Source: a virus. Taken from it: a stretch of DNA of 64,000 nt. The notes under the pieces were generated by a model. The model was not told the DNA's origin and searched no databases. It saw only the letters and a list, made by a program, of their open reading frames with translations. Below, piece by piece: positions 2,810 to 27,723 of the stretch. Each line of letters begins with the position of its first letter. Within the stretch, counting starts at the first letter, position 1. Location: IMG/VR virus record IMGVR_UViG_3300050494_000042, one strand, 5' to 3'. The position numbers and the translations under genes were made by a program.

Positions 2810-2845
2810 GCAGACACCCCACTGCAACGGGTTAGTAGTTGCAAC
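2810..2845 (+). repeat. Solitary CRISPR repeat, plus-strand copy
   Basis: GCAGACACCCCACTGCAACGGGTTAGTAGTTGCAAC, 25 nt before the ATG of a plus-strand ORF. It is the exact reverse complement of 30601-30636. Confidence 0.9.
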
Positions 2846-2870: not shown

Positions 2871-3104
2871 ATGCAATACATCACTGTTCACGAAATTCGA
2901 GGAGGGGAGGACACCATAGCAGGAACTATTTCCTTCGACGGAAGGCACCTGATCCCCAACCCACCCCATGACCCTGTCCTGATTCGGTTGATTGAGGATG
3001 TTCAGGGATCTCCTTACCCCCTTGATGATTTACACGCCAAGTTCCGGGGAATCTACCTTCATACATCCCCACCCCAGAACGTCGAGAATGTCCAGCCTGC
3101 TTAG
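2871..3104 (+). CDS. Hypothetical protein (77 aa)
   Basis: MQYITVHEIRGG... begins just downstream of the solitary repeat and converges on the kinase-domain gene. Confidence 0.55.
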   Translation: MQYITVHEIRGGEDTIAGTISFDGRHLIPNPPHDPVLIRLIEDVQGSPYPLDDLHAKFRGIYLHTSPPQNVENVQPA

Positions 3105-4948
3105 GTCGGGTACGCCAAATGTGCCACGTAGTGATGCCGTCCTGACATGACGTTATCGTATCGTCTCTTGACGTGACCAATCGCTTCCGGCTCAATTCCG
3201 TGATGGTGCAATTCCGATTCAATCTCTGGCCACTTTCCCGCCAATGGGGTCAGATCCGGCATCCGCAAGCGATTTTGGGCAGCGTGATCTAAGATTTCCC
3301 TGTTCGTGTGGTTATCTTCCGCCTCGTCATCGGTCGGGAACGACAAGCCGTGATCGATCAGGACCAACTTGCCTTGCGGGGACACCAACCAGTTCCCCAT
3401 ATGCCTATCGGTGTTGCCAATCAAGTAATCGAATACTGCTGCCCGTGCCGCGTCGGTGTCCCCATCGTACTCGCTTCCTCGTGGTGCTCGGAAAGCGACC
3501 TGACCGTCCATGAACTGCTGAATCGATCCAATCTCGCCGTTGTGGTTCCGAACCGTCGTTGGGGGGACTAGGTCATGCATTCCAATGACGTCTGCCAGGG
3601 CTGATGCGGCAGCTTCCCTTCGGTAATGCGTTCCAGGCTGAATAGCTGACCGCAGAGGATGTTCCCCGTTGCTCGGCTTGAAGACACCCTTCATTCCCCC
3701 TGAAAGGTGAAGCAGACGCACTTCCTTCGGATCTTTGTGACCGATGGAGGATTCCTGCTCCGCGTTCAGTTGGGAGAGCATTTCCTTCTCGGGACTCAGT
3801 GGACGTCCGGATGTCGTTTGTGTGGGCTGGACGTTCTGTGGCGTGGTGGAGACGAGATTACGGAAGATATCCCCGTGGGGGTCTTCATCGTGCGATGGTG
3901 ACGCTCCCAGTGCCCTGACCGTGTGAGCGTACTCGGGTCCGGACAGGGAACCCAAGTACGATTCGAGGTAGTGCTTGAAGTTAGGCTTGCGGGCTGCATC
4001 CTGAATGTTCTGAACGTGTTGGGGGACGTTGGTGGGCTGGGAATCAGGTGGAGCATCATCGTATCGACTCGCTGCGAAGAAGTCCTCTGGGATGGTTTCA
4101 TTGGGACGCCAATCGACTTGGTCGGGTTCGTACTCTAACTTGTGCAAATTCCACTGATTCTGACCGCTTGGCTGGTGTGCAAAATCTGCCTCCGGGTGAT
4201 CCAAAAAAGCAATCCTTCCATTTCCCGCGAAACCATTGTTGGAAGCCCATCTTTTCCAAGAGTCGTGCAGCATTCCCACACTCACCTCGGGATGATTCCC
4301 GATTACAGACCCAAAATGCTTTCGGAGCCAGGCCTGACGTCCCATCAGTGCAGGTAGACTTTCCGCAGGAACATCCCTAGCTACAACTCGATGAGTCAGA
4401 GGACTCGAATATTCCAATCGGGAATAACGTGAGTATCCCCACTCTTCGGAATCAGGCACAGGATAGTTCGGTTGGGGCTGAACAGGCTGTTGTGGGGGGA
4501 CGTAAATTCCTGGTGCGGGTGGATTGTAAATCCGCTTCTTGGGTGCGTAAATCGGCTGATTGGTGGGCTGCACGGGTGGAGGAAGTTCACAGTCGTCGTA
4601 GAGGCTTAATTGTTCCGGAGGTTGTGCCAGTGACCAGAACTCAGCTTTAGGTCCACTCCCACCCGCACGATTACTTCTCCTGTCCACTGTGAAATGTCCT
4701 TGATTCAGTCCGTGGGACAGAGCCGCGTCGAGTGACGGACCCCATAGTCGAATCTTCTGAACGAGAGCTTTCTTGGTGAGTTCCCCGTGATTGGCAAGCG
4801 TCTGGTGAACCAGGGAAAACACTTCCTCCGGTGTCTTCTGTGCCCGATTGGTGACGTATCGTTTCTGAGCCGCAGCCCCCTGCTGACGCCGACGCTGATC
4901 CAAGAACGCTTGGACTTCGGGTGTCACGACTTTTCGGGGAGTGGGCAC
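3101..4948 (-). CDS. Multi-domain protein with a C-terminal PI3/4-kinase-like (HipA-like) domain
   Basis: GVFKP, REAAASALAD, LVPPT, GSIQQF, FDYLIGNTDRHMGNWL, IDHGLSFP. Confidence 0.75.
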   Translation of the reverse strand: MPTPRKVVTPEVQAFLDQRRRQQGAAAQKRYVTNRAQKTPEEVFSLVHQTLANHGELTKKALVQKIRLWGPSLDAALSHGLNQGHFTVDRRSNRAGGSGPKAEFWSLAQPPEQLSLYDDCELPPPVQPTNQPIYAPKKRIYNPPAPGIYVPPQQPVQPQPNYPVPDSEEWGYSRYSRLEYSSPLTHRVVARDVPAESLPALMGRQAWLRKHFGSVIGNHPEVSVGMLHDSWKRWASNNGFAGNGRIAFLDHPEADFAHQPSGQNQWNLHKLEYEPDQVDWRPNETIPEDFFAASRYDDAPPDSQPTNVPQHVQNIQDAARKPNFKHYLESYLGSLSGPEYAHTVRALGASPSHDEDPHGDIFRNLVSTTPQNVQPTQTTSGRPLSPEKEMLSQLNAEQESSIGHKDPKEVRLLHLSGGMKGVFKPSNGEHPLRSAIQPGTHYRREAAASALADVIGMHDLVPPTTVRNHNGEIGSIQQFMDGQVAFRAPRGSEYDGDTDAARAAVFDYLIGNTDRHMGNWLVSPQGKLVLIDHGLSFPTDDEAEDNHTNREILDHAAQNRLRMPDLTPLAGKWPEIESELHHHGIEPEAIGHVKRRYDNVMSGRHHYVAHLAYPT

Positions 4949-5684: not shown

Positions 5685-5770
5685 TTTACTCCTACGAACC
5701 GGGAGTAATCGGTGTATGCCCGGAACAACACTCAGTTGCAACTACGAACCCGTTGCAGTGGGACTTTACC
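5685..5770 (-). repeat. Two-unit mini-array (near-consensus repeat plus variant-C repeat)
   Basis: GGTAAAGTCCCACTGCAACGGGTTCGTAGTTGCAAC (5735-5770, overlapping the upstream stop TAA), a short spacer, then ACACCGATTACTCCCGGTTCGTAGGAG. Confidence 0.8.
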
Positions 5771-6299: not shown

Positions 6300-6364
6300 T
6301 TTGCAGCTACAAACCCACTGCACTGGGATACCCAAACACTACTATACGATTCCCCATTTGGCAA
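6300..6364 (-). promoter_or_regulatory. Promoter immediately followed by a solitary repeat
   Basis: TTGCCA-N17-TAGTGT (6364-6336), then GGTATCCCAGTGCAGTGGGTTTGTAGCTGCAAA (within 6300-6335). Confidence 0.75.
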
Positions 6365-9300
6365 ATACCCGATGTGTCTCCGGGAACTTCTGCTTCAGGG
6401 TTTCCCTTCCGTTGGGGGTCGCATGGGCAAGTCGGAAGGCTTCCCCGAATCCTTCGGTTGGGTCAATGGCAGAATATTCGTTCAAGTTCCCACTCTTGAT
6501 TTCCTTGTGCCAGGCTTTCTTCCACTCATCCGATGTCGAGAGTTGGTGGTATCCCCCTTCCTTCCCCGCAGGATGGGACCAATCAAGTGCATGGGCGACT
6601 TCATGGGCCAGGACGCCCATCGGGTCATTTCCCCCCGCGTGGAGGTGAACGTGCCCCACATCCGGGTCGTGGAAGCCGTTGGGGGCTGTGAACTGACTGT
6701 TCGGGTCATCCGCAGCCTGTCCCGTGGCCTTCGTCCAGTGATTCCCCACATGCTCCTGTGACTGATGCGAAACGATGTGACTCAGCCTGCCTTGTCGGAG
6801 TCGTTCGATCACGTTCGGTGAAAAGCTCTTGAGCATGTCGAACGTCTGTCCTGCCAGGTGAGCAGCCTGATCCGGATCTTGGACGTGGTGAACCAGAGCA
6901 TTCGCGATGGAAGACGCGAAGGTATCGTGATTCGTCCAATCGACGGGATGGTGAACGCTGCCAGTGTCTTGTTGCTGCTGGGGCTGTGCGTCATCGTATC
7001 GGGACGCCTGGGTCGGAGGTTGCTGTGTTCCCAGATTCTTGACGTATGCTTGCCGGAACGCTTCCTCCATCGCGTGACGGGATGGCCATGCAAATGTCTG
7101 CGTCGAATCATCCCACCTGCCGTGATGGGGCTTCACCTTGCCGTCTGGGTCGGCCTCCCCGGTCCATGCCCACGTTTCACCGGGGATGTGATATCCAAAG
7201 TTCTCAACTCCTTTTGGGAATCTCCCGTCGTTCGTCCCATAAGCAAAACCCCCCGGTGAGGCGACAACCCACGGTCGATCCGCGAATTCCTGCTGTCGGT
7301 GTCGTGGGATTTTCGGTGGCTTCCAGGTGGAATACCATTCCCCGAGATTCCTTCGGAATTGAGCTTCTTCTGGCTGGCCGTTCTCTTCCAGGAAGTCCGC
7401 GTATGCCCCATGCGTGGTGTATTCGTGGGGATTCTCGTCAATCTTCCGCTCGAAGTCCTCGGCGGTAGGTTCCATGTACATAGCCGGTTTCGGATAACCC
7501 GAGAATCCCGGCTTGCGTGGTGGGGAGTGCTGGAACATCACAGAGCCAGGAATGTATTGCCCCTTCCGGTAGGGTTTGTCACGATACGTCATTGCGACCG
7601 GAGCTTGACGACGCTCGTACCTCGTGAACCCAATCGGCTGTTGGGGTTTCCTCCGATCCTGTCCGAACGACGGAATGAAAGTGTTGTTTCCTCCAGGGAA
7701 ACCCATGTATCGCTGATGACCCAACACGGGACCATTCACCGGGGGAGTCCCTGGTTGCTTCCCTGACGAAAAGAATTGCATTGGAGGGCTGATTCCCCCT
7801 CCTGGCGGAACAGCGTGTCCTGGCATCGGTCCGGGAATCCCCGCAGGGGAGGGAACCTGAGCCAGTTGCATTGGTGGGGCTGTGGGTTGCACGCCCATCA
7901 TCATGCTCGGATCGAGGGGACTTCCAGGAGGAACCGGTCCCTGTCCTGGCATCCCGTCCGGAGGCATCACGGGGGGAAGTTGTCCCATCTGCGGCAATTC
8001 CGGCCCCTGTGGACCCATTTTGGTCACGATGGTGGGTCCACCGGGGAACGCCTGAATGACGACCTCATCCCCCTCTTCTGGTCGGGAGAAATCACCCGCT
8101 TCCATCAGTTCATCGAGCTTGATGTACCCGCCCATGCTCAAGATCAACTTGCCCGACTGGACTTTCTCTTTCTTTTCCAAGTCGGGGAGGATGCTCTTGA
8201 ACCTGACCGGGAACTTTGCCCACGGGAAGTTGTACTTCTTCAGGGGAGCCAGAAGATCGTTAGTCAAAACTTCGTCAAGACGATTGGTGTCATATACTAA
8301 CAACTCATCCTTCGTTGCTCTCGAAAGCTCGGCACGTCCGGTGCCTCCAAGCCCATCCCCCTTATCCGCTCCGGAGGACATGCTCTGACCAACGAACAGC
8401 CTCTCAATGTGTCGGTCGAAGAAGTCCCTCACCAAGTCTTGAAGTGCTTTCAGTCCAGCACTGTTCATCTGGATCTGTTCGACTGCATTCCAGTTCTGGT
8501 CAGGACGACGCGGGCAAACAATTGCAGCTTTCCCAATGATTTTGTTGGCGTTGATTTCTGCCTGGAGCTTCCCGGCTGCGTCCCCTGCGGGGTAATTGAA
8601 AACGAGCAGGTCCATCTGCCCGATGGCCTGCATGTAAGTGATCATCCAGGTCAGGGCGTCGGTACGAAGGACATAGAGCCAGTACACCATTCCCCGCAAA
8701 CCCAATCCCTGAATACTACCCGCTAAGATTCCCTCGAAGAAGTCGGCTGGTTCCCGAACGTGCTGATGGATCACAAACCGTTCTCGCCACTGTTCCCGTT
8801 GAAGGACAAGGGCACATCCACCCCGGTCGGTGTAACGTAGATCCCCGTCCCCCCATGTTTCAGCCTGAATGCCTTTGTCCTTGTCGAAGGATTCCTTCCA
8901 GTCCCCACCCCACTTGGCTCCGTGGTTGGCGTACCAGGAGGTAGTCATCGAATCCATCAAGATCGCGGGGATGCCATCGAAGGTGTACTGGATGGAATCG
9001 CCGTGAACGGGGCTCCACGTCTGGTCTTTGCATCGCTGATTCTTGCCGTAGACCCAGAAGTTGTTGCAGTCAGGATCACGCTGGAAGAATCCCTGCACGG
9101 CGGATCGACCGAACCACACTCCTTGTAGAAGTGACCACTTCAACATCGAGAACTGTGGAGTAGATTCCACGATCTTGGTCATGGAATCCCGAACGTACAT
9201 CTGCTTGCTGTCGCGGTCATCATCGACCTCTATCCTCCAGTCGCGGTTCATTGTCGGTAAAAGTCTCTCCCACAGAAGCCCCCACAGGAACCCATCCCGT

Positions 9301-9542
9301 CGCATGGCCCTGGCATTTACGTAACTGTCACGCATACTCTCATCAAATTTGCTGCTGAACATTCTCTGAGCTGCGTTATATACCGCCTGCACAGCATGAG
9401 ATGGAGGAACTAACAAACGACCATTACCTATCATTGGCGAGCCGTCTGGAAGCGTGAAGTCCTCCAGCTTGAAGTTCTTCCGAGGCGGGACAGCCCTGAA
9501 AACCTCTAAGTCTTTTGCCAGGTCGTCAATGACGGTGGGCAT
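6342..9542 (-). CDS. Portal protein (DUF935/Mu gp29-like) fused to a Pro-rich linker, a TIGR02996 domain and a HEXXH zincin domain
   Basis: N-terminal ~500 aa are portal-like (LLQGVWFGRSAV, RLFVGQSMSS, NDLLAPLKKYNFP). Then FERKIDENPH...YADFLEENG and C-terminal LAHEVAHALD...EGFGEAF. Genomic context is a packaging module. Confidence 0.65.
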   Translation of the reverse strand: MPTVIDDLAKDLEVFRAVPPRKNFKLEDFTLPDGSPMIGNGRLLVPPSHAVQAVYNAAQRMFSSKFDESMRDSYVNARAMRRDGFLWGLLWERLLPTMNRDWRIEVDDDRDSKQMYVRDSMTKIVESTPQFSMLKWSLLQGVWFGRSAVQGFFQRDPDCNNFWVYGKNQRCKDQTWSPVHGDSIQYTFDGIPAILMDSMTTSWYANHGAKWGGDWKESFDKDKGIQAETWGDGDLRYTDRGGCALVLQREQWRERFVIHQHVREPADFFEGILAGSIQGLGLRGMVYWLYVLRTDALTWMITYMQAIGQMDLLVFNYPAGDAAGKLQAEINANKIIGKAAIVCPRRPDQNWNAVEQIQMNSAGLKALQDLVRDFFDRHIERLFVGQSMSSGADKGDGLGGTGRAELSRATKDELLVYDTNRLDEVLTNDLLAPLKKYNFPWAKFPVRFKSILPDLEKKEKVQSGKLILSMGGYIKLDELMEAGDFSRPEEGDEVVIQAFPGGPTIVTKMGPQGPELPQMGQLPPVMPPDGMPGQGPVPPGSPLDPSMMMGVQPTAPPMQLAQVPSPAGIPGPMPGHAVPPGGGISPPMQFFSSGKQPGTPPVNGPVLGHQRYMGFPGGNNTFIPSFGQDRRKPQQPIGFTRYERRQAPVAMTYRDKPYRKGQYIPGSVMFQHSPPRKPGFSGYPKPAMYMEPTAEDFERKIDENPHEYTTHGAYADFLEENGQPEEAQFRRNLGEWYSTWKPPKIPRHRQQEFADRPWVVASPGGFAYGTNDGRFPKGVENFGYHIPGETWAWTGEADPDGKVKPHHGRWDDSTQTFAWPSRHAMEEAFRQAYVKNLGTQQPPTQASRYDDAQPQQQQDTGSVHHPVDWTNHDTFASSIANALVHHVQDPDQAAHLAGQTFDMLKSFSPNVIERLRQGRLSHIVSHQSQEHVGNHWTKATGQAADDPNSQFTAPNGFHDPDVGHVHLHAGGNDPMGVLAHEVAHALDWSHPAGKEGGYHQLSTSDEWKKAWHKEIKSGNLNEYSAIDPTEGFGEAFRLAHATPNGRETLKQKFPETHRVFAKWGIV

Positions 9543-9561: not shown

Positions 9562-9600
9562 ACAAGCGGGTCGCGGGTTGTGGTCCCGACGCCCGCTTGC
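9562..9600 (-). terminator. Stem-loop after the repeat-flanked cassettes, before the portal gene
   Basis: AAGCGGG...CCCGCTT followed by GTTCTTATTT on the minus strand. Confidence 0.45.
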
Positions 9601-9660
9601 TACGAATTGTACCATCTCGATGTGAAGAAACTACAGAGAAGTGACGTGCTTTCGCTTCTA

Positions 9661-9743
9661 CTTCAATCGACCCGAAGCAGTGGGATTGTCAGATACTACA
9701 GCGACGAGTTGCAACTACTAACCCGCCACGGTGGATTGCTTGT
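9661..9743 (-). repeat. Mini-array: degenerate array-type repeat, 17-nt spacer, variant-B repeat
   Basis: CAAGCAATCCACCGTGGCGGGTTAGTAGTTGCAAC, TCGTCGCTGTAGTATCT, GACAATCCCACTGCTTCGGGTCGATTGAAG. Confidence 0.8.
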
Positions 9744-10017
9744 TCAGCTTCGGATCGACCTTCGTGGGTGTCGGTACGGGTTCCACCGTCGTCTTCGACT
9801 TGATGTAGTCCGCACACGCCTTCAATAACTGCGACGTCTGGCCGTAGAAGAACGCGGGGGAAGGATGTCCTGCCATCAGAGAACCACCCAGAGAGGCTTC
9901 TGCTTGCCGGTCGATGCCGGATGCCGTCTCGTCACACATTTTGATGAGCACAGCCGGATCAGTCAGATCCGGTGCTCCGGGGAAATCCAATCGAGGAAGC
10001 GGGGATGTCTCAGTCAC
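9718..10017 (-). CDS. Hypothetical protein bracketed by repeats
   Basis: RBS AGGAG before GTG 10017; the stop codon lies inside the 9708-9743 repeat. Confidence 0.6.
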   Translation of the reverse strand: MTETSPLPRLDFPGAPDLTDPAVLIKMCDETASGIDRQAEASLGGSLMAGHPSPAFFYGQTSQLLKACADYIKSKTTVEPVPTPTKVDPKLNKQSTVAG

Positions 10018-10052
10018 GAAAATGGTCTCCTGTTGTTGAAATTTACTGTCTG

Positions 10053-10140
10053 CTTCAATTGACCCGAAGCAGTGGGATTGTCCGCCAGACACGATCCTTC
10101 ATCGCCTTCACCCCTACAAACCGGGAGCAATCGGTTGTTC
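10053..10140 (-). repeat. Mini-array: variant-C repeat, ~28-nt spacer, variant-B repeat
   Basis: GAACAACCGATTGCTCCCGGTTTGTAGGGG ... GACAATCCCACTGCTTCGGGTCAATTGAAG (29/30 identical to the 9661 copy). Confidence 0.8.
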
Positions 10141-10395
10141 TTGACTCTTCGCCAACGTCTCCAGTGTATTCCCACCCGACAGCAAAGCACAGACGATCTT
10201 TTCCACGAAGAGTGGGGAAAGTTCATACTGGCCATGCTGATTCAGGGCGTAATACACATTCTTCCCTGACGGTTGGAGAGGCTGTTCCCCTTCCACCTTC
10301 GGAAGGGTGACGCCCTTGAAGTTCTGGAGTTGGGCAAGAATCTTGGCGAGTCGTTGGGACTCTTGCCCCACAGCTAACATATCAATCGGATTCAT
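10114..10395 (-). CDS. Hypothetical protein directly after the CRISPR array
   Basis: RBS AAAGGAG lies within the 28 nt after the last repeat; the stop TAG lies inside the variant-C repeat. Confidence 0.65.
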   Translation of the reverse strand: MNPIDMLAVGQESQRLAKILAQLQNFKGVTLPKVEGEQPLQPSGKNVYYALNQHGQYELSPLFVEKIVCALLSGGNTLETLAKSQEQPIAPGL

Positions 10396-10423
10396 TCATT
10401 CTCCTTTGGTGGATCGACTGCCG

Positions 10424-10898
10424 GTTGCAACTACTAACCCGTTGCACTGGGATTGTTACGTCTCTTCTGTGTGAGGCACCAACCCAGCGGCTTGTGGTTG
10501 CAACTACAAACCGGTTGCACTCGGTATGTCACGCCGACGCCGAGCAGTTGGCGGCACTCGAACGCAAGTTGCAACTACAAACCGGTTGCACTGGGATTGT
10601 TACCTAGCTTCGACTTCCGTGCCGCATTCATTGCTTCGCCCCTCGATTGCAACTACTAACCCGTTGCACTGGGATTGTTACGATGCTTGTGCTGCTTGTG
10701 GTTGTCCACTCGAAGATGTTGCAACTACTAACCCGTTGCACTGGGATTGTTACCGAAATAAAGGTTCGGGAACTCTGCCATAGGCGCCGTTGCAACTACT
10801 AACCCGTTGCACTGGGATTGTTACAGCCGTCGCCAGGTCCGGCGGCACGAGGAGGCCGGTGTGTTGCAACTACTAACCCGTTGCACTGGGATTGTTAC
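10424..10898 (-). CRISPR. CRISPR array, 7 repeats and 6 spacers
   Basis: 36-nt repeat GTAACAATCCCAGTGCAACGGGTTAGTAGTTGCAAC at 10424, 10497, 10568, 10646, 10718, 10789 and 10863. Spacers are 35-42 nt; the leader-distal repeats at 10497 and 10568 are variants. Confidence 0.97.
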
Positions 10899-10902
10899 TG
10901 CC

Positions 10903-10931
10903 ACTCTACAACACGCCCGCTTCCCAAGCAA
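10903..10931 (-). promoter_or_regulatory. Array leader promoter
   Basis: TTGCTT-N17-TAGAGT, with the -10 box 4 nt before the first repeat. Confidence 0.7.
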
Positions 10932-11020
10932 ATTATTCCTGTTCCGCGAGCGGTTCCCAATTTGACCCATGATCCTTCACATTGAACCCCTATCAAGCGG
11001 GGGGTCATCGCCTGGAAATC

Positions 11021-12925
11021 CTAGACGCGAGCGGGTACTTTCGCCCCAGAAGCCCCCAAAGCCCTGTTTAACAAGTTCGTGGCGGCATTCACTGCCCGAT
11101 CCCTCTTTTCACCACCACAGGACTCGCAGCGAATCCAGCGGCCCGACTTCGGGTGGTCACACGATTCCCCACACTGACAACACGTCGTCACGATGTTCCT
11201 GGCGGACTCAGTAACTTCGTTCATGTATCTTGTTATCTCGTCCCGGAGTTGGGCACAGGAAGACAGTGCCCGATATCGCTTGTTGACGATATCGTTCCCG
11301 TTCTCGACTTCAGGATTCTCAGCCAACTTGTTCCAGTCAATTTCCGCGATCACCACGTCCTTGTACTGATAGCTCAGGTCAATCGCCACTTTTCGGAAGA
11401 AATCCTTCCGCCAGTTCTTGATCTTGTCCCGCTTGTGTGCCCTCCAGTCGCACAGGTGTTTGCTCTGCAAACGCCCCCCGGTGTACTGATTCCTTCCCGT
11501 GGTTGGGTTGAGTTGGATTCTCCCCCACATTCTTTGGAAGATCTCTTCGTCTCCGGGAATCCGATGATCCTTCCACCACCAAATGAGCCACATGAACCTG
11601 TCGGCACTTCGCCACTGAATCAGAGTCTGGGCACGCTCGGTCCACTCTTCGGGAAGGGGATTCGGGTAGTTCACGAACCAGTCGACCAGTTCAGCCCTTT
11701 CAGCTTCAAACAAGGTATCCCGAATGGACTGGAGGGTGTCAAGATAGGACCACCCCTCCACCAATTCTTTGGGAATACGGACGGTTCCGGTCACACCATC
11801 ATCACCAACCCACTCGGTAACGCGGATTTCCCCATCAATCAGACGCCAACCCAACGCCACCGCGACAGTCCCTTCCTGTGCCCGATCCTGTCCGGCCGGG
11901 TGATACGTCCACGCATCCCGTGCGATGTCGAACTGAACATCCCACCGGTAATGAGTTCCAATCTTCCTGCGGGACAGGTGAACCCACTTCACTTCACCGT
12001 CTTCGGGGAGAGGACGCGACATGACAGCCGGAATCGACGCCATCACCGGCTTTCCCTTTTCGTCCGACGATACACGAAAGTGGATGACGACGTACTTCGG
12101 ATGGGGAGCCGTCAGCGGTGGTTGATACGTCCTTTCGATCCAGCAATTCGTGTTGGGGGTGAAGACATCACAGGTCCGAAGAGATGACCCCCCCACGTGA
12201 GCGAACGTTGGCTTCTTGCTGCGTGGATGGATCTTGGGATTGCCTTTGGAGTCCAAAACTGGCTCCTTCGGGGATGTCTTGTCGGGCTTCCGTTGGAACT
12301 GAACCGAGATAACTTCCTCCCCCCGCCACGACTTGAACTTCGGGGGTGGGCCGGTTCTCTTTACACGTCCCACCACTTGCAGGGAAGTAGCCCAGTACAA
12401 CCCACCTTCCACCGCCGCGTTGCGGGCATCTGCCTTTCGTTGTTCAAACGACTTATCGTTGTCCTTCAGGTCGGCTTTCACCTTCGGGTCGGCAAACGCG
12501 GCGTCCCGCTGATCAGAATAGAACTCCCATGCCTGGGACACCACACGCTTCTGAGCGTTGATTTGCTCCACTAGTTCGGGGTCTGACATCAACTGCCGGT
12601 TCTGACTGTTCGACTGGCTGAGTTCATCCCGAAGCTCCTGGAGGCGTTCCTGCTGCTCCTGGGCTGCGTTGTGGAGGGTCGTCAGAGCCGGAAAGTGTCT
12701 GACCAGGATTGGGTCGATGGCTTCCCTGCGGGCACGCTCGATTTCTACCAACTTGTTCTGGAACTGGTGAGCGAGCTTCATCTGGGTAACTGCCAGGTCG
12801 TGTCCATCGAACCTCTGACGGAGGGCTTTCGTGCCGTCAGGATTGATTTCACGCGGACCGGAAAGGAACCCCCGGCAACCGTAGTTGTACTTGCGAGTCG
12901 GTTTGCTCTTGTTACCGAATGCCAT
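11021..12925 (-). CDS. cas12m: Type V-M (V-U1) Cas12m-like effector, RuvC predicted inactive (634 aa)
   Basis: Motifs recalled from Cas12m: QMKLAHQFQNKLVEIE, GLYWAT, ISVQFQR, TVAVALGWR, QWRSADRF, zinc finger CCQC..CESC, DRAVNAATNLL. Adjacent to the array. The start at 12925 is supported by a GGAG RBS and an upstream promoter. Confidence 0.85.
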   Translation of the reverse strand: MAFGNKSKPTRKYNYGCRGFLSGPREINPDGTKALRQRFDGHDLAVTQMKLAHQFQNKLVEIERARREAIDPILVRHFPALTTLHNAAQEQQERLQELRDELSQSNSQNRQLMSDPELVEQINAQKRVVSQAWEFYSDQRDAAFADPKVKADLKDNDKSFEQRKADARNAAVEGGLYWATSLQVVGRVKRTGPPPKFKSWRGEEVISVQFQRKPDKTSPKEPVLDSKGNPKIHPRSKKPTFAHVGGSSLRTCDVFTPNTNCWIERTYQPPLTAPHPKYVVIHFRVSSDEKGKPVMASIPAVMSRPLPEDGEVKWVHLSRRKIGTHYRWDVQFDIARDAWTYHPAGQDRAQEGTVAVALGWRLIDGEIRVTEWVGDDGVTGTVRIPKELVEGWSYLDTLQSIRDTLFEAERAELVDWFVNYPNPLPEEWTERAQTLIQWRSADRFMWLIWWWKDHRIPGDEEIFQRMWGRIQLNPTTGRNQYTGGRLQSKHLCDWRAHKRDKIKNWRKDFFRKVAIDLSYQYKDVVIAEIDWNKLAENPEVENGNDIVNKRYRALSSCAQLRDEITRYMNEVTESARNIVTTCCQCGESCDHPKSGRWIRCESCGGEKRDRAVNAATNLLNRALGASGAKVPARV

Positions 12926-12953
12926 GCTTGGGAACTCCAGAAGGTGGGAAATC

Positions 12954-13018
12954 TTCGCAGCTACCAACCCGCTGCGATGGGAACAGGCAACCCTAGCATG
13001 AGATTCGTTAAAAGGCAA
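12954..13018 (-). promoter_or_regulatory. cas12m promoter followed by a degenerate repeat in the 5' UTR
   Basis: TTGCCT-N17-TAGGGT (extended TG), then GTTCCCATCGCAGCGGGTTGGTAGCTGCGAA. Confidence 0.75.
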
Positions 13019-13019
13019 A

Positions 13020-13628
13020 TTATCGTCCCGGTGGTCTGATTCTCCTGTTCGTGAATGTCCTCCTGCCGTCCATTCCCCCTTCGTTCTGATATCCCATCGA
13101 ATCACCGTCTTCCTCGAACGGAACTCCGGTAATACTCCCGTCGTCGTGGACAGTGATTACCATCACTCTGCCACCCTGGGGGCTTTGTAGAGTCATTCCC
13201 ACGCGAACCGGGAAACCGACATGGAACCGGACGGTGGTGATCTCTGTCTGTCCTTGCTGGACTTCAGGAACGACCGGATTGAACATCCGGACCACTTCCA
13301 TGCACGCCCAGTTCATGTCGAACAGAATTGGTTGGAGAAGATTCCCCAACTGGAACCGGAAGTCATTCTCAGGGTCATTACTCCGAGGACCAGCAAACAT
13401 ATCTCTCGTGGCGAATCCCACAACAAACGCTTGCAAGTTATGAGCAGTCTGTACCATTCCCGCTTCGAGGAGGGCATCATAGAGAGGAATGGCCGCTGTG
13501 GGGTCAGGAGGTGTTAATTCCTCTCCGGACTCTGGCAGATAGCCAACGGACCCCACCAGACGCCACGCCAGATTACCGATGTTGTCGGACCTGCGGACGG
13601 GTCCAACTTGTTGTTCTTGTTCTGCCAT
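13020..13628 (-). CDS. Hypothetical protein
   Basis: 202-aa ORF in the operon direction. Confidence 0.55.
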   Translation of the reverse strand: MAEQEQQVGPVRRSDNIGNLAWRLVGSVGYLPESGEELTPPDPTAAIPLYDALLEAGMVQTAHNLQAFVVGFATRDMFAGPRSNDPENDFRFQLGNLLQPILFDMNWACMEVVRMFNPVVPEVQQGQTEITTVRFHVGFPVRVGMTLQSPQGGRVMVITVHDDGSITGVPFEEDGDSMGYQNEGGMDGRRTFTNRRIRPPGR

Positions 13629-14651: not shown

Positions 14652-16660
14652 TTTCGTGCTCCTGTCGCAAGAACGGTGTCTATCAACGAAGGTGCCCGAT
14701 TGAGTTCCTGCTCCGACGCTAACTTCTCGTCTATTTCCTTGAGTGGAATCACGGACATTCGGCAGTAGGTATCGTCCACTCCAAGAGAAATGAACAGATT
14801 GCTTCCGTGAACCACAGCCCCACCAGGCCAGCAAACGAACCGCTTCACCACGTTGTCATTGTCTTTGCTGTCTGGCCAAAGCAAAGGAGTTGGTGTCTGT
14901 CTCCAGACATTGAACGGTGGTTCGGGATTGAATGCCACACAGCCAGCGGAATACACACTGCCTTGCAGACGCTTCCGGCACCCGTGTACAATTGACCACA
15001 TCTCGTAACGCTGTTCCTTCTCACTCCACACTTTGATCGGGGACGCTCCACCTCGAATGACCCCACCTGCCCAGGGCAACTTGTTCGGAGTACGCCACGT
15101 CTGGCGGTCGGACATCACGATCATTTCCGGCTTGTGTGCGTAAACCCAGTGAATTTTCCCGTTGTGCTCCCACGCGACCCAGTTCTTCTCATACTTGTTA
15201 GAATTTGGTGACTCGAATACGAAGGTGTCCTCGATGCTTTTAAGGTCATCTGCGAACCGGACGTATCCGACCTGCACCAGCTTCGGGGGATACCCGTCCG
15301 GCAAACTGAATGAAGCGTGGAGTCTGCCTTCGTACAGAAACAGTCGGGGGTCTTCGAGTCGGGTGGCCTGAGCGTGTTTCGATGCCAGCGAGGATACAGC
15401 CGTCACAGACCATTCCCCAAGCCAGTCTTCCTGGGTGTTCTGCAACACCCAAATTCCAGTACGGCTATGACCCCAACTGTCCCGCGTGGCGAGGATCAAT
15501 TGCCCCCGATACTCTGCCACCGAACAATTAAAGTGTCCGTCCGGAACGGGAAGTCGAGTTCTTTCTACGTCAGGTGTCACGAACTGTCGGTATTCACACG
15601 TCTCGCAGGATCGCACAGGAACGTCGGCTTCCTTGATTTTGGCCCCCACCTTCGTGAAGCAGTGATCTCCGTAACGACCACACTTCGCCAGAGGTATCGT
15701 CCTTCCCCCTTCCAGGACACCGATTTCGTTGCTCCACTCCGACCGGTACATACAGGGAAGTGGGTCCGAATATTGGAGTATCACCTGATCCATCTCCGGG
15801 GTGATGTGAAGAGGATCTTGAATCTCCCGTCCCGTCAGGAGTGCCTGGACGTCCCCGTGGTGCCTGCTCTCCGTGACACCGAGGGGTAACGATGGTTCGC
15901 TGCTACTAACCCGCTGCGATGGGTCTGGGGCAGTTCGTGTGACATTTCCATCGGAATTAACCCCCGATAGTGGGTTGTCGCTAACGTCGATACAGGATGG
16001 TGCCCATTCCGGTTTCCCGGTGCCTGCGTAGTCGAATGTTCGCTGCGTTACAATGGACGGGAGGACCGCACACCAGTTCAAAAGTCCCTTCTTCAGGACA
16101 CGTTCCCAGAGTTGCTGATCCAGGTTCCGGTGTGCCGCCCGCATGTGCTCCAGAAGAACCGGGAGAGCACGTCTGCGGAGCATAATGGCGTGTGTGCCGA
16201 AAGGTTCGTTTAGTCTGCACAGACGCGAATCAGGCAATCCAATGCGTTCCGTCACCTTGTTCCAGCAATTAGGCTGCACTTCTGCGGAGCCGAGAAACAC
16301 CAGATCCCACTCCGGGAAGTCGGAATAGAGTTGGCGTTGGAGCAGTTCCAGTTCAGTGTGGTAGTTCTCAGGGAGGGAGACGTCGTCCTCGAAGATGATG
16401 TATTCGTGATTGTCGCGATGAACCCACTCCTGACCCGACAACCAGATGTGCTGCCAGAGATTCCACGTCGAAAGGTTGAGAGAGACGTGACCAGACGGCA
16501 GGTGCTTTCCCGGCTCGTATTCGAGTGTGGTGGAAAGTCCCCAAGTACGTCCGTGGCTGGCCTTCCAGTACGTCGCGTCAATCCCCCGCTCTGCAAGGTG
16601 TTCCTTGCAGGCTTGGGTTCGTTCGGGAAGCTCTTCGCAGTGAATCACATAATACTTCAC
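14648..16660 (-). CDS. Glycosyltransferase family 25-like domain fused to a GH130-like/beta-propeller glycosidase domain
   Basis: N-terminus YVIHC..ERT, GHVSL, YIIFEDD, GTHA; C-terminus LEDPRL, EKNWV, RGGASP, YSAG, WPGG. Confidence 0.6.
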   Translation of the reverse strand: MKYYVIHCEELPERTQACKEHLAERGIDATYWKASHGRTWGLSTTLEYEPGKHLPSGHVSLNLSTWNLWQHIWLSGQEWVHRDNHEYIIFEDDVSLPENYHTELELLQRQLYSDFPEWDLVFLGSAEVQPNCWNKVTERIGLPDSRLCRLNEPFGTHAIMLRRRALPVLLEHMRAAHRNLDQQLWERVLKKGLLNWCAVLPSIVTQRTFDYAGTGKPEWAPSCIDVSDNPLSGVNSDGNVTRTAPDPSQRVSSSEPSLPLGVTESRHHGDVQALLTGREIQDPLHITPEMDQVILQYSDPLPCMYRSEWSNEIGVLEGGRTIPLAKCGRYGDHCFTKVGAKIKEADVPVRSCETCEYRQFVTPDVERTRLPVPDGHFNCSVAEYRGQLILATRDSWGHSRTGIWVLQNTQEDWLGEWSVTAVSSLASKHAQATRLEDPRLFLYEGRLHASFSLPDGYPPKLVQVGYVRFADDLKSIEDTFVFESPNSNKYEKNWVAWEHNGKIHWVYAHKPEMIVMSDRQTWRTPNKLPWAGGVIRGGASPIKVWSEKEQRYEMWSIVHGCRKRLQGSVYSAGCVAFNPEPPFNVWRQTPTPLLWPDSKDNDNVVKRFVCWPGGAVVHGSNLFISLGVDDTYCRMSVIPLKEIDEKLASEQELNRAPSLIDTVLATGARK
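15896..15931 (-). repeat. Repeat variant embedded in frame in the interdomain linker
   Basis: GACCCATCGCAGCGGGTTAGTAGCAGCGAA, nearly identical to the copy in the cas12m leader. Confidence 0.7.
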
Positions 16661-17542: not shown

Positions 17543-17624
17543 ATTACAACTACGAACCCGTTGCACTGGGATGCCGACTCCATTTCGCTTCCCACCTACG
17601 AACCCGATGAGTTGGGTTGACTCT
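17543..17624 (-). repeat. Paired repeats at a gene junction
   Basis: AACCCAACTCATCGGGTTCGTAGG (contains the upstream stop), then GTCGGCATCCCAGTGCAACGGGTTCGTAGTTGTAAT (17543-17578). Confidence 0.75.
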
Positions 17625-19803: not shown

Positions 19804-19839
19804 GTTGCAACTACAAACGCGTCGCACTGGGATTATTCC
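19804..19839 (-). repeat. Solitary repeat at a stop/start junction
   Basis: GGAATAATCCCAGTGCGACGCGTTTGTAGTTGCAAC; the upstream stop TAA overlaps its 5' end. Confidence 0.8.
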
Positions 19840-20046: not shown

Positions 20047-20106
20047 AAACACCCCGTTGCATTCGGATTACTGCGAAACTCTAGCACGCAATCCGTGGAA
20101 AGGCAA
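20047..20106 (-). promoter_or_regulatory. Promoter followed by a degenerate repeat hairpin
   Basis: TTGCCT-N17-TAGAGT, then GTAATCCGAATGCAACGGGG. Confidence 0.65.
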
Positions 20107-24800: not shown

Positions 24801-27723
24801 GTTCCTCAAGGAAATCCGCGAATGGTCCCAGTCCCGATGCATCGTTCTGGGACACGATTCCATGCATCATCGCGTCGTGAGTATCAGGATCGCCGGATTG
24901 AACGTAGTGCGTTCCCATGTGCTCGTCGTAGGACTCCGTGACGTCCGTATCCCCGAAGTCGTAATTCGTCCTTCCGTAACGCGAGAAGTTCACATCCTCA
25001 CTGACTTCCCGCTGTTCCAACCCAGAAGCCTGCTGGGGAACGGGTGGATGTGTCTGGGACAGTTGATGTGCTGTCTGGTGAGCCTGCTGTGCCGCTTTCT
25101 CAGGGAATTCTCCCACATTCCCATGAACACCTGCTTCGTGGGATATCCCCCCTGTGTCGGGATGGAACTGCCAGACGTCGTGAGCTTCCTCCCCGTCATG
25201 ACCCTCGAAATCGTCACGGGACGTGAAGTAGACGCCCCCAGGACCACTATGGGGTTCCCCGTGGGAGGTGTGACGCTCACCCTGATTGTTGACCCACCCG
25301 TAGTGCTCGTTGGGGAACATCTCGTTGAAGTGGGACGTCTCCCCGTTGGCTTTACGGATGTCGTCCCAGGTGTAGTGCGGACCTGCCTTTACTTCCCCCG
25401 TCTGCGGGTGTGTCGAAATCCAGGCGTTTCCTTGATGGGTTCTCAGGAAGTTCAGTGTGTCCGGGTGGACGGTATGAGGAGCGTAGTCCTCCAACCAATC
25501 AGCATAGATCTGCCTATTTACTGCGTCATGAGGAGCTTCCTGGGCACGTGCCTGAAACGCCTGGTGGGAGTAGTCAGTACGGGAATACGGGGTTTTGTTC
25601 CTCCAATAGTCCCTATCGGGGTGTTCCCCACCTGAAAACCCTCCTGCGGAATCCCCGGTATCGTCGTAATTCGACTGCTCATCTTCGTCCTCGTTGTACC
25701 ACCTGTCGTGGTTTGGGGAATCCTGTCCATCCCCACCCGCTCCAGAGCCACTGAATCCGTACATGGAGCCGTCTGCGTCGTCGTACCGGGCGTTCTGTTC
25801 GGGTGGTGTCTGGGACTCCAGGTATTCGGCTGAATTCAACAGACGAGCACGCAGGGTCGGGGACACCTTCGGATGATCTGCCCATTCTCGAAGGGATGGG
25901 GCATCCATGACAGCAGTGTGGGACGGAAAGGACAGACTTCCGCCCGTTCTTCGGTGAACCAGGGCACTTCCGGGAACGTCAGTGGACCGGATAGTCCATG
26001 TCTGGTCCCCATCACGAACAACTGTGCTTGGTTCCCCTGCCAATTGTGCCTTGTGGGAAATGCCCTGCTTGTTGTGAACAAGCGGAGAACCTGATTCGAC
26101 CAAGTTCCGGTAAAAGGGAGCGTGGGGTTCCCCGGCTTCATCCAGTGCATCTGCCAAGACCCCCCCGGCTGTGGTGTCCTGAACGTAGTTGTGGTTGTAC
26201 TCGTCAGCCCACTGTCTTTGACTGTTCTCAACCCCCTGACGAATGGTTTCCCCTAAATCGAGGGTGTACATCGTCCCTGTGTGGCCACCAGATTGCGTAG
26301 GAACGTCACTGTGGGGCGAAAGGGGGTCCGGATGGCCAAAGTGTGCGTAGAGGTGCGAAACTTCGTCTGGAGTCATTGCAGCACTGTAAGACGGCTCATC
26401 ATTCTCCGTAGGGGTCCAATTAACGGCATGAACGACAGGTCGGGCTTCTGCGTCTGATGCCCACTTCTGACTCGCGGGATACCAGCCACCCGTCAACTGC
26501 AACGTACCGCCATCCCCCGTTGGAACGACACGTCGAGATGTGCCGTCGTGTGGATGCCACCGATGATCAACCGGACCACCCGCAAGCTGTTCCGCATGGC
26601 GATGCAAATTCCCCAACCATCCATTGCCCACCCCATGATGACTCGGATTGTCTGCGGAACTCCGATACGACACATCCCTGTCCACAATCGTGGCTCGTGG
26701 ATCGTCGTGGTCGGCTAACTTACCCACCAAGACATGATCCACGTAGGCATTCGGGTCCATGCTCCCGGCTCCGGGTGCGGAGTTCAGAATTTCATGGATT
26801 TCATTGATAGGAGCCGCGTAGTCGGTTGGGTCTCCATCGGCATACCGTGAAAACTGTCGTCCTGCCTGAGCTTGCTTGGGGAACCCTGCCGGGGATACCC
26901 AGGGAGAACCGAACTGTTCCAGGCTTTGAGTTGATCCGGGGGCGATACTTCCGGGGATTGTGGGTGGGGGAAGTCTCATGTCGGTGAAGGACGGGTAGCC
27001 GAAGGAATCGTCGTCGTAACGGCTTAATTGCTGGGGTTCTTCATGATCCTCTGGCAAGTTTGGGTCGGCGTGGTAAACATGCTCGATGGTCTTCTGTCGA
27101 ACGTGCTCAGGAAGATCGGCTAGCATCTCGTTCAGATGGCGGTGGGACAGCACAGGGACACGGTAATCAATTCCGATTTCCTGTGGGGCAGAATAGGAGT
27201 TATGATAGATACGTAGATATGAGCCAGTTCGAGGTTCCTTCACAGGAACCTCCCTTTTTACAGCCTGAATACTCGCAAATCCCGGAACATCGTGTCGGTG
27301 AACAGGATCGATATAGACATTCGCTTCCCCATTACTGTCCCTTATGGAATCGACGTCCTCAGTATGATACAGCCTTTGGAACCCATTCGGACGATACTTG
27401 GCTCCTTCCGCCATCAACAAACCCCCTGGCTGTCCGTACTGCTGAAGATGGTCCGCCAACATCGCCAGGGGAGTACCTTCATGTTCATCCGCTGTCAGAA
27501 CTGCATTGTGTAGCTCATCGTGAACCTGCCGGAATTCATCATCGTAATTCGTCGGTTCATTGGAATACTGAGCGTAACAGTCGTAGCTTTGGAACTCCGG
27601 ATTCGGATACACGTTGCAACTACTAACCCGTTGCACTGGGATAGGCATAAACTCCTGCAACCCCTTCAGGAAAATGTGAAGGGCGTCCTGAACCTGCTGG
27701 AGGGCTTCGTATTCCGGATTCAC
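21823..27723 (-). CDS. Giant (1966 aa) modular protein with about 8-9 TIGR02996-like modules
   Basis: Repeated YADWLE/LADYLE motifs, an internal duplicated module, a DFWVSRNGHGAGFW domain and xRY linkers; lies between terS and terL. Confidence 0.75.
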   Translation of the reverse strand: MNPEYEALQQVQDALHIFLKGLQEFMPIPVQRVSSCNVYPNPEFQSYDCYAQYSNEPTNYDDEFRQVHDELHNAVLTADEHEGTPLAMLADHLQQYGQPGGLLMAEGAKYRPNGFQRLYHTEDVDSIRDSNGEANVYIDPVHRHDVPGFASIQAVKREVPVKEPRTGSYLRIYHNSYSAPQEIGIDYRVPVLSHRHLNEMLADLPEHVRQKTIEHVYHADPNLPEDHEEPQQLSRYDDDSFGYPSFTDMRLPPPTIPGSIAPGSTQSLEQFGSPWVSPAGFPKQAQAGRQFSRYADGDPTDYAAPINEIHEILNSAPGAGSMDPNAYVDHVLVGKLADHDDPRATIVDRDVSYRSSADNPSHHGVGNGWLGNLHRHAEQLAGGPVDHRWHPHDGTSRRVVPTGDGGTLQLTGGWYPASQKWASDAEARPVVHAVNWTPTENDEPSYSAAMTPDEVSHLYAHFGHPDPLSPHSDVPTQSGGHTGTMYTLDLGETIRQGVENSQRQWADEYNHNYVQDTTAGGVLADALDEAGEPHAPFYRNLVESGSPLVHNKQGISHKAQLAGEPSTVVRDGDQTWTIRSTDVPGSALVHRRTGGSLSFPSHTAVMDAPSLREWADHPKVSPTLRARLLNSAEYLESQTPPEQNARYDDADGSMYGFSGSGAGGDGQDSPNHDRWYNEDEDEQSNYDDTGDSAGGFSGGEHPDRDYWRNKTPYSRTDYSHQAFQARAQEAPHDAVNRQIYADWLEDYAPHTVHPDTLNFLRTHQGNAWISTHPQTGEVKAGPHYTWDDIRKANGETSHFNEMFPNEHYGWVNNQGERHTSHGEPHSGPGGVYFTSRDDFEGHDGEEAHDVWQFHPDTGGISHEAGVHGNVGEFPEKAAQQAHQTAHQLSQTHPPVPQQASGLEQREVSEDVNFSRYGRTNYDFGDTDVTESYDEHMGTHYVQSGDPDTHDAMMHGIVSQNDASGLGPFADFLEEQGMPGAHLARQAYWHSRDPEQMRPPFYPGLWFPYDYSIQLPSVVEDGTPGPHGPTPHQQIGLTPHISKKYYDTGARSGALTVTHAPHGNPLRFGNGGYLQYHVPVDSKEHLAHLTQDLPEPMRQAIHAYMEPHLPSQPDFQPQMMSRYSRTDYVSEQELPAMLSSISPRAWRGWQHEQSPHFDMTPRLVAADYLDDLHADTGNQDYARQAAILRDTRKHAYLDPDGGIQDAHALSQQLHRQYRPNIQGYMIRPDHLEPGFQQYMDTALWSSTDPDAGEPLDENHTYHNIHPATMAAMLADFRHFRATNQEKLADTSSGSSDHAHDFWVSRNGHGAGFWEKPEVYGDHGYDLQDAAEKHGEHDLYVGSDGMIHGSYEVQPTQDEPTQAARYSRMDYMTSEEDFHRMLDETPHDHQTRMILADYLEDQNDPRAAGYRALGMHRRYATHWNPKAEGYDGQPYPESWDWGHDENSHYPNVSNALPRDWLDAMESTNPSYANAQDREYWTHHESRRAADDAAALGFARLHPERQAELLGQSQQTQAAQYSDTAWSSGGGTLHEDHSDFRGKDKPFEGQRYYPEAYQESVNYDYSPPQQEWQERDDIADWVSQSRTHLNNYPNLSPVMEQDGDQRYSMYARTDYSHEAFHHAIQEHPNDTVARGVYADWLEEKDPNSVSPDTLHFLRNHPGDAWVAHHPQTGEVHAGAIPTFDDIRKANGEEYGWTAAYGGHPSKHYGFFPSFGVEGSGEHIPHGPVHSGIGGHYFVTEGEGFPENPNPHRYDVWKFHPQDGGISLRMPSRWMGHSQEEAHRNANELSQTPPVAPAPAPRLSEDTGEEHLSLYADDDSSQEQWTDPHAAFQASIYPELGGNPLDPMGHYVYSDFLREQGHHDEADFRQAMGDWHSQNHGMYDPQQYLSLKNADAQQFPHRIYSGSLPSGVDPEHLPQYRQSHRDGDFYTAPDHVPRFIGMQYSWPTYKGMEAAFHQSFMANRQQGQTG
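27613..27648 (-). repeat. Near-consensus repeat within or at the start of the giant ORF
   Basis: ATGCCTATCCCAGTGCAACGGGTTAGTAGTTGCAAC: the 3' 30 nt are identical to the array repeat. It encodes MPIPVQRVSSCN in frame. Confidence 0.9.

Follow-up and report, generated by a model that had tools for sequence, protein, structure and literature searches.

Autogenous operators, such as those of ribosomal proteins, the MS2 coat protein and the bacteriophage T4 proteins RegA and gp32, consist of a weaker copy of the protein's ligand placed near the protein's own translation start, and operators of the RegA type also control many other phage messages. Solitary repeat units (SRUs) located next to cas12a are frequent and conserved within clades; they show no targeting pattern and are proposed to bind and modulate the effector (PMC10120712). 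The Moraxella bovoculi type V-A RNA termed CreR represses the cas12a promoter via a partially matching, PAM-flanked DNA site (10.1101/2023.03.10.532045). TnpB, an ancestor-type RuvC protein of the Cas12 lineage, processes its own mRNA into omega-RNA; the omega-RNA scaffold shares sequence with the 3′ end of tnpB, and the mRNA is lost upon processing (Nety et al. 2023, PMC10278001).

Cas12m is described as a DNA-binding roadblock. In the crRNA of Cas12m2, a stem and a pseudoknot helix are stacked, the seven nucleotides at the 5′ end of the repeat are disordered and the guide forms a 17-bp duplex; furthermore, Cas12m2 processes its pre-crRNA by a cut upstream of the scaffold (PMC10442227). One 2026 preprint is so far the only report of a phage-borne Cas12m, and it does not mention leader or dispersed repeats. 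In the soil phage analysed here, a worn, structurally intact copy of the phage's own CRISPR repeat heads the predicted cas12m mRNA. In the following we outline the structure of this leader, its conservation and its recurrence in the phage genome, and discuss a putative role in the control of cas12m.

The phage and its Cas12m

The window, i.e., the whole stretch of 64,000 nucleotides that was analysed, is phage-like, with a Mu-type portal and nearly all genes on one strand, and the sequencing runs that contain it are rhizosphere and soil DNA runs, with no RNA run among those listed for 9600-13200 or for the cas12m gene. The gene adjacent to the CRISPR array had been named cas12m, an identity which holds: a phmmer search of the PDB with the 634-aa protein returns the “CRISPR-associated DNA-binding protein Cas12m” (23vw_A, E=1.3e-43), and the repeat array lies directly downstream. 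Cas12m2 (8hio/8hhl) is matched weakly in the same type of search (E~8e-5), and a Pfam search with the protein matches no family. The start codon is secure, since the N-terminus (MAFG...) agrees with the invariant residues M1, F3 and G4 of 30 homologues.

Upon alignment to the Cas12m structure, the RuvC-I and RuvC-III aspartates are found replaced by alanine, while the glutamate is retained (RuvC-I: AVALGWR versus AIDLGWR in the structure; RuvC-III: RAVNAA versus QDYNAA). Both substitutions are nearly invariant across the 30-member family, which keeps the zinc-finger cysteines as well as the glutamate. From the alanines at these two positions, the phage Cas12m is predicted to be nuclease-dead.

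Scanning viral contigs with the single protein yielded nothing; a profile scan did recover relatives, and every fetched relative (loci numbered with the prefix L below) sits in a phage context. Deposited phage genomes searched with the array and the repeat gave no match. The only deposited phage that encodes a homologue is Virus Rctr197k, and this protein is distant and annotated as “similar to transposase”. The window also encodes a Mu-type portal protein (6342-9542, minus strand) with a C-terminal anthrax-lethal-factor-like (ATLF) metalloprotease-type domain (E=1.5e-7), and a 615-aa protein (3101-4948, minus strand) with a PI3/PI4-kinase-like motif (E=2e-11). L001 shares these two proteins in conserved form.

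Layout of the cas12m leader

The minus-strand gap of 94 nt between the upstream ORF (13020..13628) and cas12m contains four features, namely a promoter-like motif, a repeat-like element, an untranslated region (UTR) and the ATG (Table 1). The motif starts 1 nt past the stop codon of the upstream ORF (13020-13022), and its end is separated from the repeat-like element by 5 nt. Within the UTR, the Shine-Dalgarno (SD) sequence GGAG (12938-12935) occupies positions 16-19 after the handle and lies 9 nt ahead of the ATG; the structured part of the handle ends 15 nt ahead of the SD and 28 nt ahead of the ATG. The order given in the original prediction (promoter, repeat, 28 nt with the ribosome-binding site (RBS), ATG) describes this anatomy correctly, with the promoter recognised by its motif only. 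The 31-nt element occurs once in the window, where none is expected by chance, and other matches with up to 3 mismatches are absent. At the far end of the array, 28 nt with an SD separate the last repeat from the ATG of a 93-aa ORF (start 10395).

Table 1. Coordinates of the cas12m leader, the CRISPR array and related elements in the window
Feature	Position	Strand	Details
Promoter-like motif TTGCCT-N17-TAGGGT	12990..13018	(-)	-35 13018-13013, -10 12995-12990
Degenerate CRISPR-repeat copy, 31 nt (putative crRNA-handle mimic)	12954..12984	(-)	Sequence, alignment, covariance model
5′ UTR, 28 nt, at the would-be place of a spacer	12926..12953	(-)	Between handle and ATG
cas12m, 634 aa	11021..12925	(-)	ATG 12925-12923
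Cognate CRISPR array, 7 repeats of 36 nt	10424-10898	(-)	Just downstream of cas12m, same strand
Promoter-like motif, second example	10903..10931	(-)	4 nt upstream of first array repeat
Motif TTGCY-N18-TAGNGT	2717-2745, 6336-6364, 10903-10931, 12990-13018, 20078-20106, 30640-30668, 55492-55520	(-)	Motif scan
Solitary scaffolds, examples	55047-55082, 50243-50278, 30601-30636, 27613-27648, 19804-19839, 17543-17578, 6300-6335, 5685-5770	(-)	
Solitary scaffold, sole opposite-strand copy	2810-2845	(+)	

The motif TTGCY-N18-TAGNGT occurs seven times in the window, against 0.12 occurrences expected, and always on the minus strand, which is the coding strand. A repeat-like element follows within 4-12 nt after five of the seven occurrences, the array's own included; after the occurrence at 55492 there is an unrelated 6-bp hairpin. 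The site in the cas12m leader goes uncalled in a generic sigma-70 scan, since its -10 hexamer matches at only 3/6 positions. The claim that a promoter precedes the repeat thus gains from the recurrence of the motif and loses from the generic scan, and we infer the promoter at 12990-13018 from this recurrence only. With its unusual -10, TTGCY-N18-TAGNGT may define a class of phage promoters. A different conserved motif, CTTTCTTYCCCTAACG, is found directly ahead of handles or of the cas12m start in two relatives (L002:9905-9925, L003:9965-9985 and L003:12090-12112), and CTTTCTTYCCCTAACG may be the promoter type of these phages.

The leader element as a copy of the crRNA scaffold

The leader element can form two helices that cross each other. 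In the 3-bp helix S1, C12981-C12979 pair with G12970-G12968 (CCC with GGG), and in S2 positions 12977-12971 pair with 12961-12955 (TCGCAGC with GCUGCGA), leaving 12967-12962 in the loop. S2 comprises 6 bp in the array repeat, to which the leader copy adds a seventh pair; moreover, relative to the array repeat, two pairs of the leader copy have changed on both strands in a compensatory manner (A-U to G-C, U-A to C-G). The layout of element and array repeat, a pseudoknot plus a stem, matches the crRNA scaffold of Cas12m2 (PMC10442227).

The pairing scheme is backed by covariation. The element aligns with the array and 20 dispersed copies. Across the 29 copies of the window, 89% of the cells are paired, and 36 double-sided changes are observed versus 10.3 +/- 2.5 after shuffling (0/500 shuffles); if the partners are slid as a control, pairing falls to 23-47%. 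Likewise, 88% of the cells are paired in the array repeats of about 30 phage loci, with 86 double-sided changes versus 23.8 +/- 6.4 in shuffled alignments. Compensatory changes thereby support the view that the element retains the Cas12m crRNA scaffold.

A covariance model was trained on nothing but the array repeats of about 30 phage loci. In a search of the window it places the leader element at 12954-12991(-) and scores it 22.5 bits (E~1e-3), as compared to 45 bits for array repeats, and the proposed repeat in the cas12m leader can thus be specified as a diverged copy of the array repeat. Array repeats outscore leader copies in 10/10 loci compared, a comparison which is biased by the training of the model on array repeats, and the lower scores of leader copies could mean decay rather than tuned affinity. 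Upon plain folding of the leader, the S2 hairpin is present and the overall structure is not significant (z -0.3 and +1.0). A second handle variant is found in the window at 9657-9692 and 10049-10084 (minus strand), where it flanks two small ORFs directly after the array; its stem is fully exchanged (CTGCTTC/GAAGCAG) and its loop is another one.

Conservation and recurrence in related phages

The closest relative, L001, encodes a Cas12m that is 68% identical and shows a similar layout, with promoter-like motif, element, about 27 nt and ATG. Identity at four-fold degenerate sites amounts to 34.6% between the two cas12m genes, with 28% expected from composition, and provides the neutral level against which the leader can be judged. 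The handle and the promoter motif are each identical at 23/31 positions (74%, P~8e-6 against the neutral level for either), and the 28-nt UTR is identical at 11/28 positions, which corresponds to the neutral level. One S2 pair is flipped from G-C to C-G in L001, and GGAG is present at +16-19 in both phages. At the same time, the nearly invariant TT that follows S1 is missing from the leader copy of L001, which the covariance model does not detect. These comparisons support purifying selection on the handle between the window phage and its closest relative. The conservation of the structured part and the motif, and not of the “guide”, argues against a mere scar as well as against a conserved DNA-targeting guide. 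One unit of promoter-like motif and handle in the window is conserved in L001.

Within the close clade (41-68% identity), 7/11 loci harbour a leader element at a distance of 26-59 nt to the ATG (window, L001, L002, L003, L004, L007 and L008). Among the distant phage relatives (24-32% identity), the element is present in L014 (weak), L020, L026 and L040, 36-82 nt from the ATG. A leader handle is absent from 4/11 close loci, from most distant loci and from Virus Rctr197k. The element is solitary in some loci and forms the last repeat of an upstream array in others (L003, L004, L007 and L026), and the SD of the relatives often lies more than 25 nt from the handle. The arrays next to the distant Cas12m homologue of L026 (2587-2962 and 5240-5645) include repeats spaced by only 46-56 nt, which leaves spacers of about 10-20 nt; units of the normal 72-76 nt occur among them.

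The window leader does not form an intrinsic fold that sequesters the SD (z=+1.0), and therefore, any control exerted via this leader needs a trans factor. Two close relatives without a handle possess stable hairpins over the SD or the start codon (L010:5727-5790 and L011:6700-6765; z -3.4 and -2.7).

Dispersed handles across the phage genome

According to the covariance model and a structural scan, the window contains about 20 solitary repeat-like scaffolds between positions 2810 and 55082, all but one of which lie on the coding strand. About 10 units of the window, including the last array repeat, consist of a handle, 21-34 nt and a start codon with an SD, and hence, the arrangement of a handle before a start is not specific to cas12m. 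Given this shared geometry, autoregulation of cas12m would be one case of a phage-wide system. Many copies of the window are located at gene junctions and lack the promoter motif. Two scaffolds lie within long ORFs, at 15896-15931 in a 719-aa ORF and at 27613-27648 near the start of a 1966-aa ORF.

Search for DNA targets

Both strands of positions 12880-13160 were searched for DNA sites to which a guide might direct Cas12m near the cas12m promoter; the guides comprised that of the leader, 14 other pseudo-guides and the six spacers of the array. Apart from the own locus of a guide, this region contains neither a site with a seed of at least 7 nt nor one with 12/17 matches, and a window-wide search with these guides revealed no other match of interest of at least 12 nt. 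The self-locus is flanked by the 3′ end of the handle itself (GAA) rather than by TTN, the motif known for Cas12m. The original prediction set the leader apart from autoregulation directed at promoter DNA, and indeed, a DNA target of the CreR or tracr-L type near the promoter was not found in this search. In view of this negative result, an effect at the RNA level suggests itself more readily. Between the handle and the cas12m ATG there is neither a second repeat nor a terminator-like site. A separate small RNA gene of the CreR type (psiR-psiS-psiR) was considered and rejected, as the leader contains a single copy followed by the ATG after 28 nt, with no second repeat or terminator.

Self-matching spacers are found in some relatives. 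The first spacer of L001 (L001:11907-11941) matches, in reverse complement, the 3′ end of the cas12m gene of this phage (L001:11824-11856) over 33 nt with 3 mismatches, and the match has a TTC 5′ flank. The target region encodes the DRAxNAA motif, and the spacer also matches the window at 11080-11102 (23 nt, 2 mismatches). This spacer could act as a DNA-level self-targeting regulator or form a long hairpin around the first repeat. In L004, the spacer at 12553-12589 matches the portal-fusion gene (L004:3368-3404) at 37/37 positions with the 5′ flank GCA, and in L007 the spacer at 8291-8334 matches the gene of a 1540-aa protein with an ADP-ribosyltransferase domain (L007:12785-12828) at 42/44 positions with the 5′ flank CGT. 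The 5′ flanks of the relatives' self-matching spacers (GCA, CGT, TTC) are inconsistent and do not define a PAM for the clade.

A putative feedback of Cas12m on its own message

Tentatively, and with a plausibility that stops short of probability, we propose an interaction of Cas12m with the handle at the start of its own mRNA, which results in feedback on translation. The start of transcription, the binding, the direction of the effect and the occlusion of the RBS are all deduced from the sequence. In this model, the cas12m mRNA would carry a functional mimic of the Cas12m crRNA scaffold at its 5′ end. Transcription would begin a few nucleotides ahead of the scaffold, such that the mRNA would be “born” with a mature-looking handle, and no cutting would be necessary if transcription starts 2-5 nt ahead of the scaffold. 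Cas12m that is not occupied by array crRNAs would bind to the weaker leader handle, the UTR would enter or adjoin the guide channel with its first ~17-20 nt, among them the SD at +16-19, and the uptake of the SD would hinder binding of the 30S subunit. Synthesis of Cas12m would decrease upon an increase in free protein, and it would increase upon titration of the protein by crRNAs or other handles. Other handle-led units would obey a similar logic, with cas12m being one member of a set of messages controlled by Cas12m.

The originally proposed covering of the RBS can be maintained in part. The SD indeed sits at the place that a guide of 17-20 nt would reach with its distal end, but the handle of the relatives is found 26-82 nt from the ATG. 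Because of this range, and because the SD of the relatives is often too remote as well (>25 nt), RBS covering cannot be the general mechanism. In binary complexes of Cas12 proteins the guide is usually ordered in the seed only. Given this limited order and the 15 nt between handle and SD, occlusion of the SD at +16-19 is uncertain also in the window leader.

A broader proposal, possible but rather doubtful, regards the nuclease-dead effector as having turned into a regulator at the RNA level, with handles serving as “operators” on about ten messages, its own included. Cas12m would then set the translation or stability of the handle-led messages, and crRNAs would act as competitors that set its level. 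The repeat copy is unusually readable in place and turns an action of effector and handle on RNA, rather than on promoter DNA, into a concrete mechanism. If true, handle recognition alone would allow a CRISPR effector to regulate the gene that encodes it and probably also a group of phage genes, and the handle and the protein would constitute a compact, orthogonal pair for translational control.

Alternative explanations

A strong rival to autorepression, in itself somewhat unlikely, holds that the handle is a 5′-end tag or a processing mark of the cas12m mRNA and not a repressor site. The 5′ end would be set either by the transcription start or by a Cas12m cut upstream of the scaffold in read-through transcripts, the message would be insulated or stabilised with a neutral or positive effect, and the dispersed copies would punctuate polycistronic phage transcripts. 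Several relatives fit this account: the L008 handle lies 5 nt past the stop of the upstream gene and is not accompanied by a promoter motif, and in the four loci named above the handle is the last repeat of an upstream array. The many motif-free copies at gene junctions in the window point in the same direction, as do the cleavage of pre-crRNA upstream of the scaffold by Cas12m2 (PMC10442227) and the overall handle-to-ATG distances of 21-82 nt, which are easier to reconcile with a common 5′ UTR than with a strict operator. At the window locus, however, a conserved promoter-like motif abuts the handle, hence no cut would be needed, and Cas12m, if it remained bound to its product, would still be located beside the translation start.

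Three further explanations appear less plausible. An improbable one assumes that handle and UTR form a real guide RNA acting on DNA, be it in a CreR-like manner, at its own locus or on the leader of competing phages. CreR, CreA and tracr-L set a precedent for degenerate repeats next to cas genes (10.1101/2023.03.10.532045), Cas12m itself is described as a DNA-binding roadblock, and L001, L004 and L007 bear the self-matching array spacers described above. Yet, the search of 12880-13160 gave no qualifying site for any guide of the window, the would-be guide is as little conserved as neutral sites, the self-locus lacks a TTN flank, and nothing such as a terminator or a second repeat would release a small RNA ahead of the ATG. 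Similarly improbable is an element devoid of a present function, which either decays after being left behind by an upstream array or marks a recombination event as a scar. The lower scores of the leader copies and the badly worn copy of L001 would agree with decay, and since several relatives carry full arrays upstream of cas12m, the last repeat could have stayed behind. Neutral decay is at odds with a handle that is 74% identical where neutral sites are at 35% and the adjoining UTR has drifted to the neutral level, with the compensatory nature of the stem changes and with the tight spacing of the arrangement in front of about 10 units. Finally, it is very improbable that the element and the other solitary repeats are Racr-like decoys, which soak up a Cas12m-type effector of the host. 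Viral solitary repeats directly after promoters are a hallmark of Racrs (PMC10651486), but the phage itself encodes the cognate effector and array, and an SD and a long ORF come after the element, with no release of a small RNA.

Comparison with known systems

The binding of Cas12m to its own message, as predicted above, would resemble several described circuits. Like autogenous operators, the leader places a scaffold mimic of the protein's RNA ligand near the protein's own translation start. Autogenous operators overlap the SD or the start codon, whereas here the structured part ends 15 nt upstream and the “guide” segment alone covers the SD. A Cas12m that regulates many messages would work similarly to T4 RegA, and yet be built from a CRISPR protein and a repeat. 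TnpB likewise recognises a guide scaffold embedded in its own message, whereby the production of the guide is coupled in cis to the fate of the mRNA; in contrast to TnpB, the scaffold recognised here (as predicted) lies at the 5′ end, and no cut would be required (PMC10278001).

The CreR, CreA and tracr-L RNAs also derive from degenerate repeats next to cas genes and provide feedback on Cas levels by sensing crRNA competition (10.1101/2023.03.10.532045). They are separate small RNAs with a DNA site at the cas promoter, whereas the element described here is part of an mRNA and lacks such a site. With Racrs and other viral SRUs the element shares the position of a phage solitary repeat right after a predicted promoter and the mimicry of a crRNA handle (Camara-Wilpert et al. 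2023, PMC10651486). Racrs are non-coding, unlinked to cas genes and aimed at the system of the host, whereas the present element heads the mRNA of the phage's own effector.

A parallel in position is found in the cas12a SRUs (Shmakov et al. 2023, PMC10120712), where a single, rather diverged copy also lies just upstream of a Cas12 effector gene. The present copy differs in being located between a promoter-like motif and an SD, within the 5′ UTR of the effector gene; it belongs to a phage-borne Cas12m with alanines in place of the RuvC aspartates, and the unit precedes about 10 units of the genome. Novelty had been claimed for the leader repeat, and solitary repeats next to cas12a were already known. 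What differs from known systems, as far as can be read from the DNA, is a mimic in the effector's own 5′ UTR next to the SD, together with a cognate effector encoded by the phage itself, the absence of a DNA target and a family of similar leaders.
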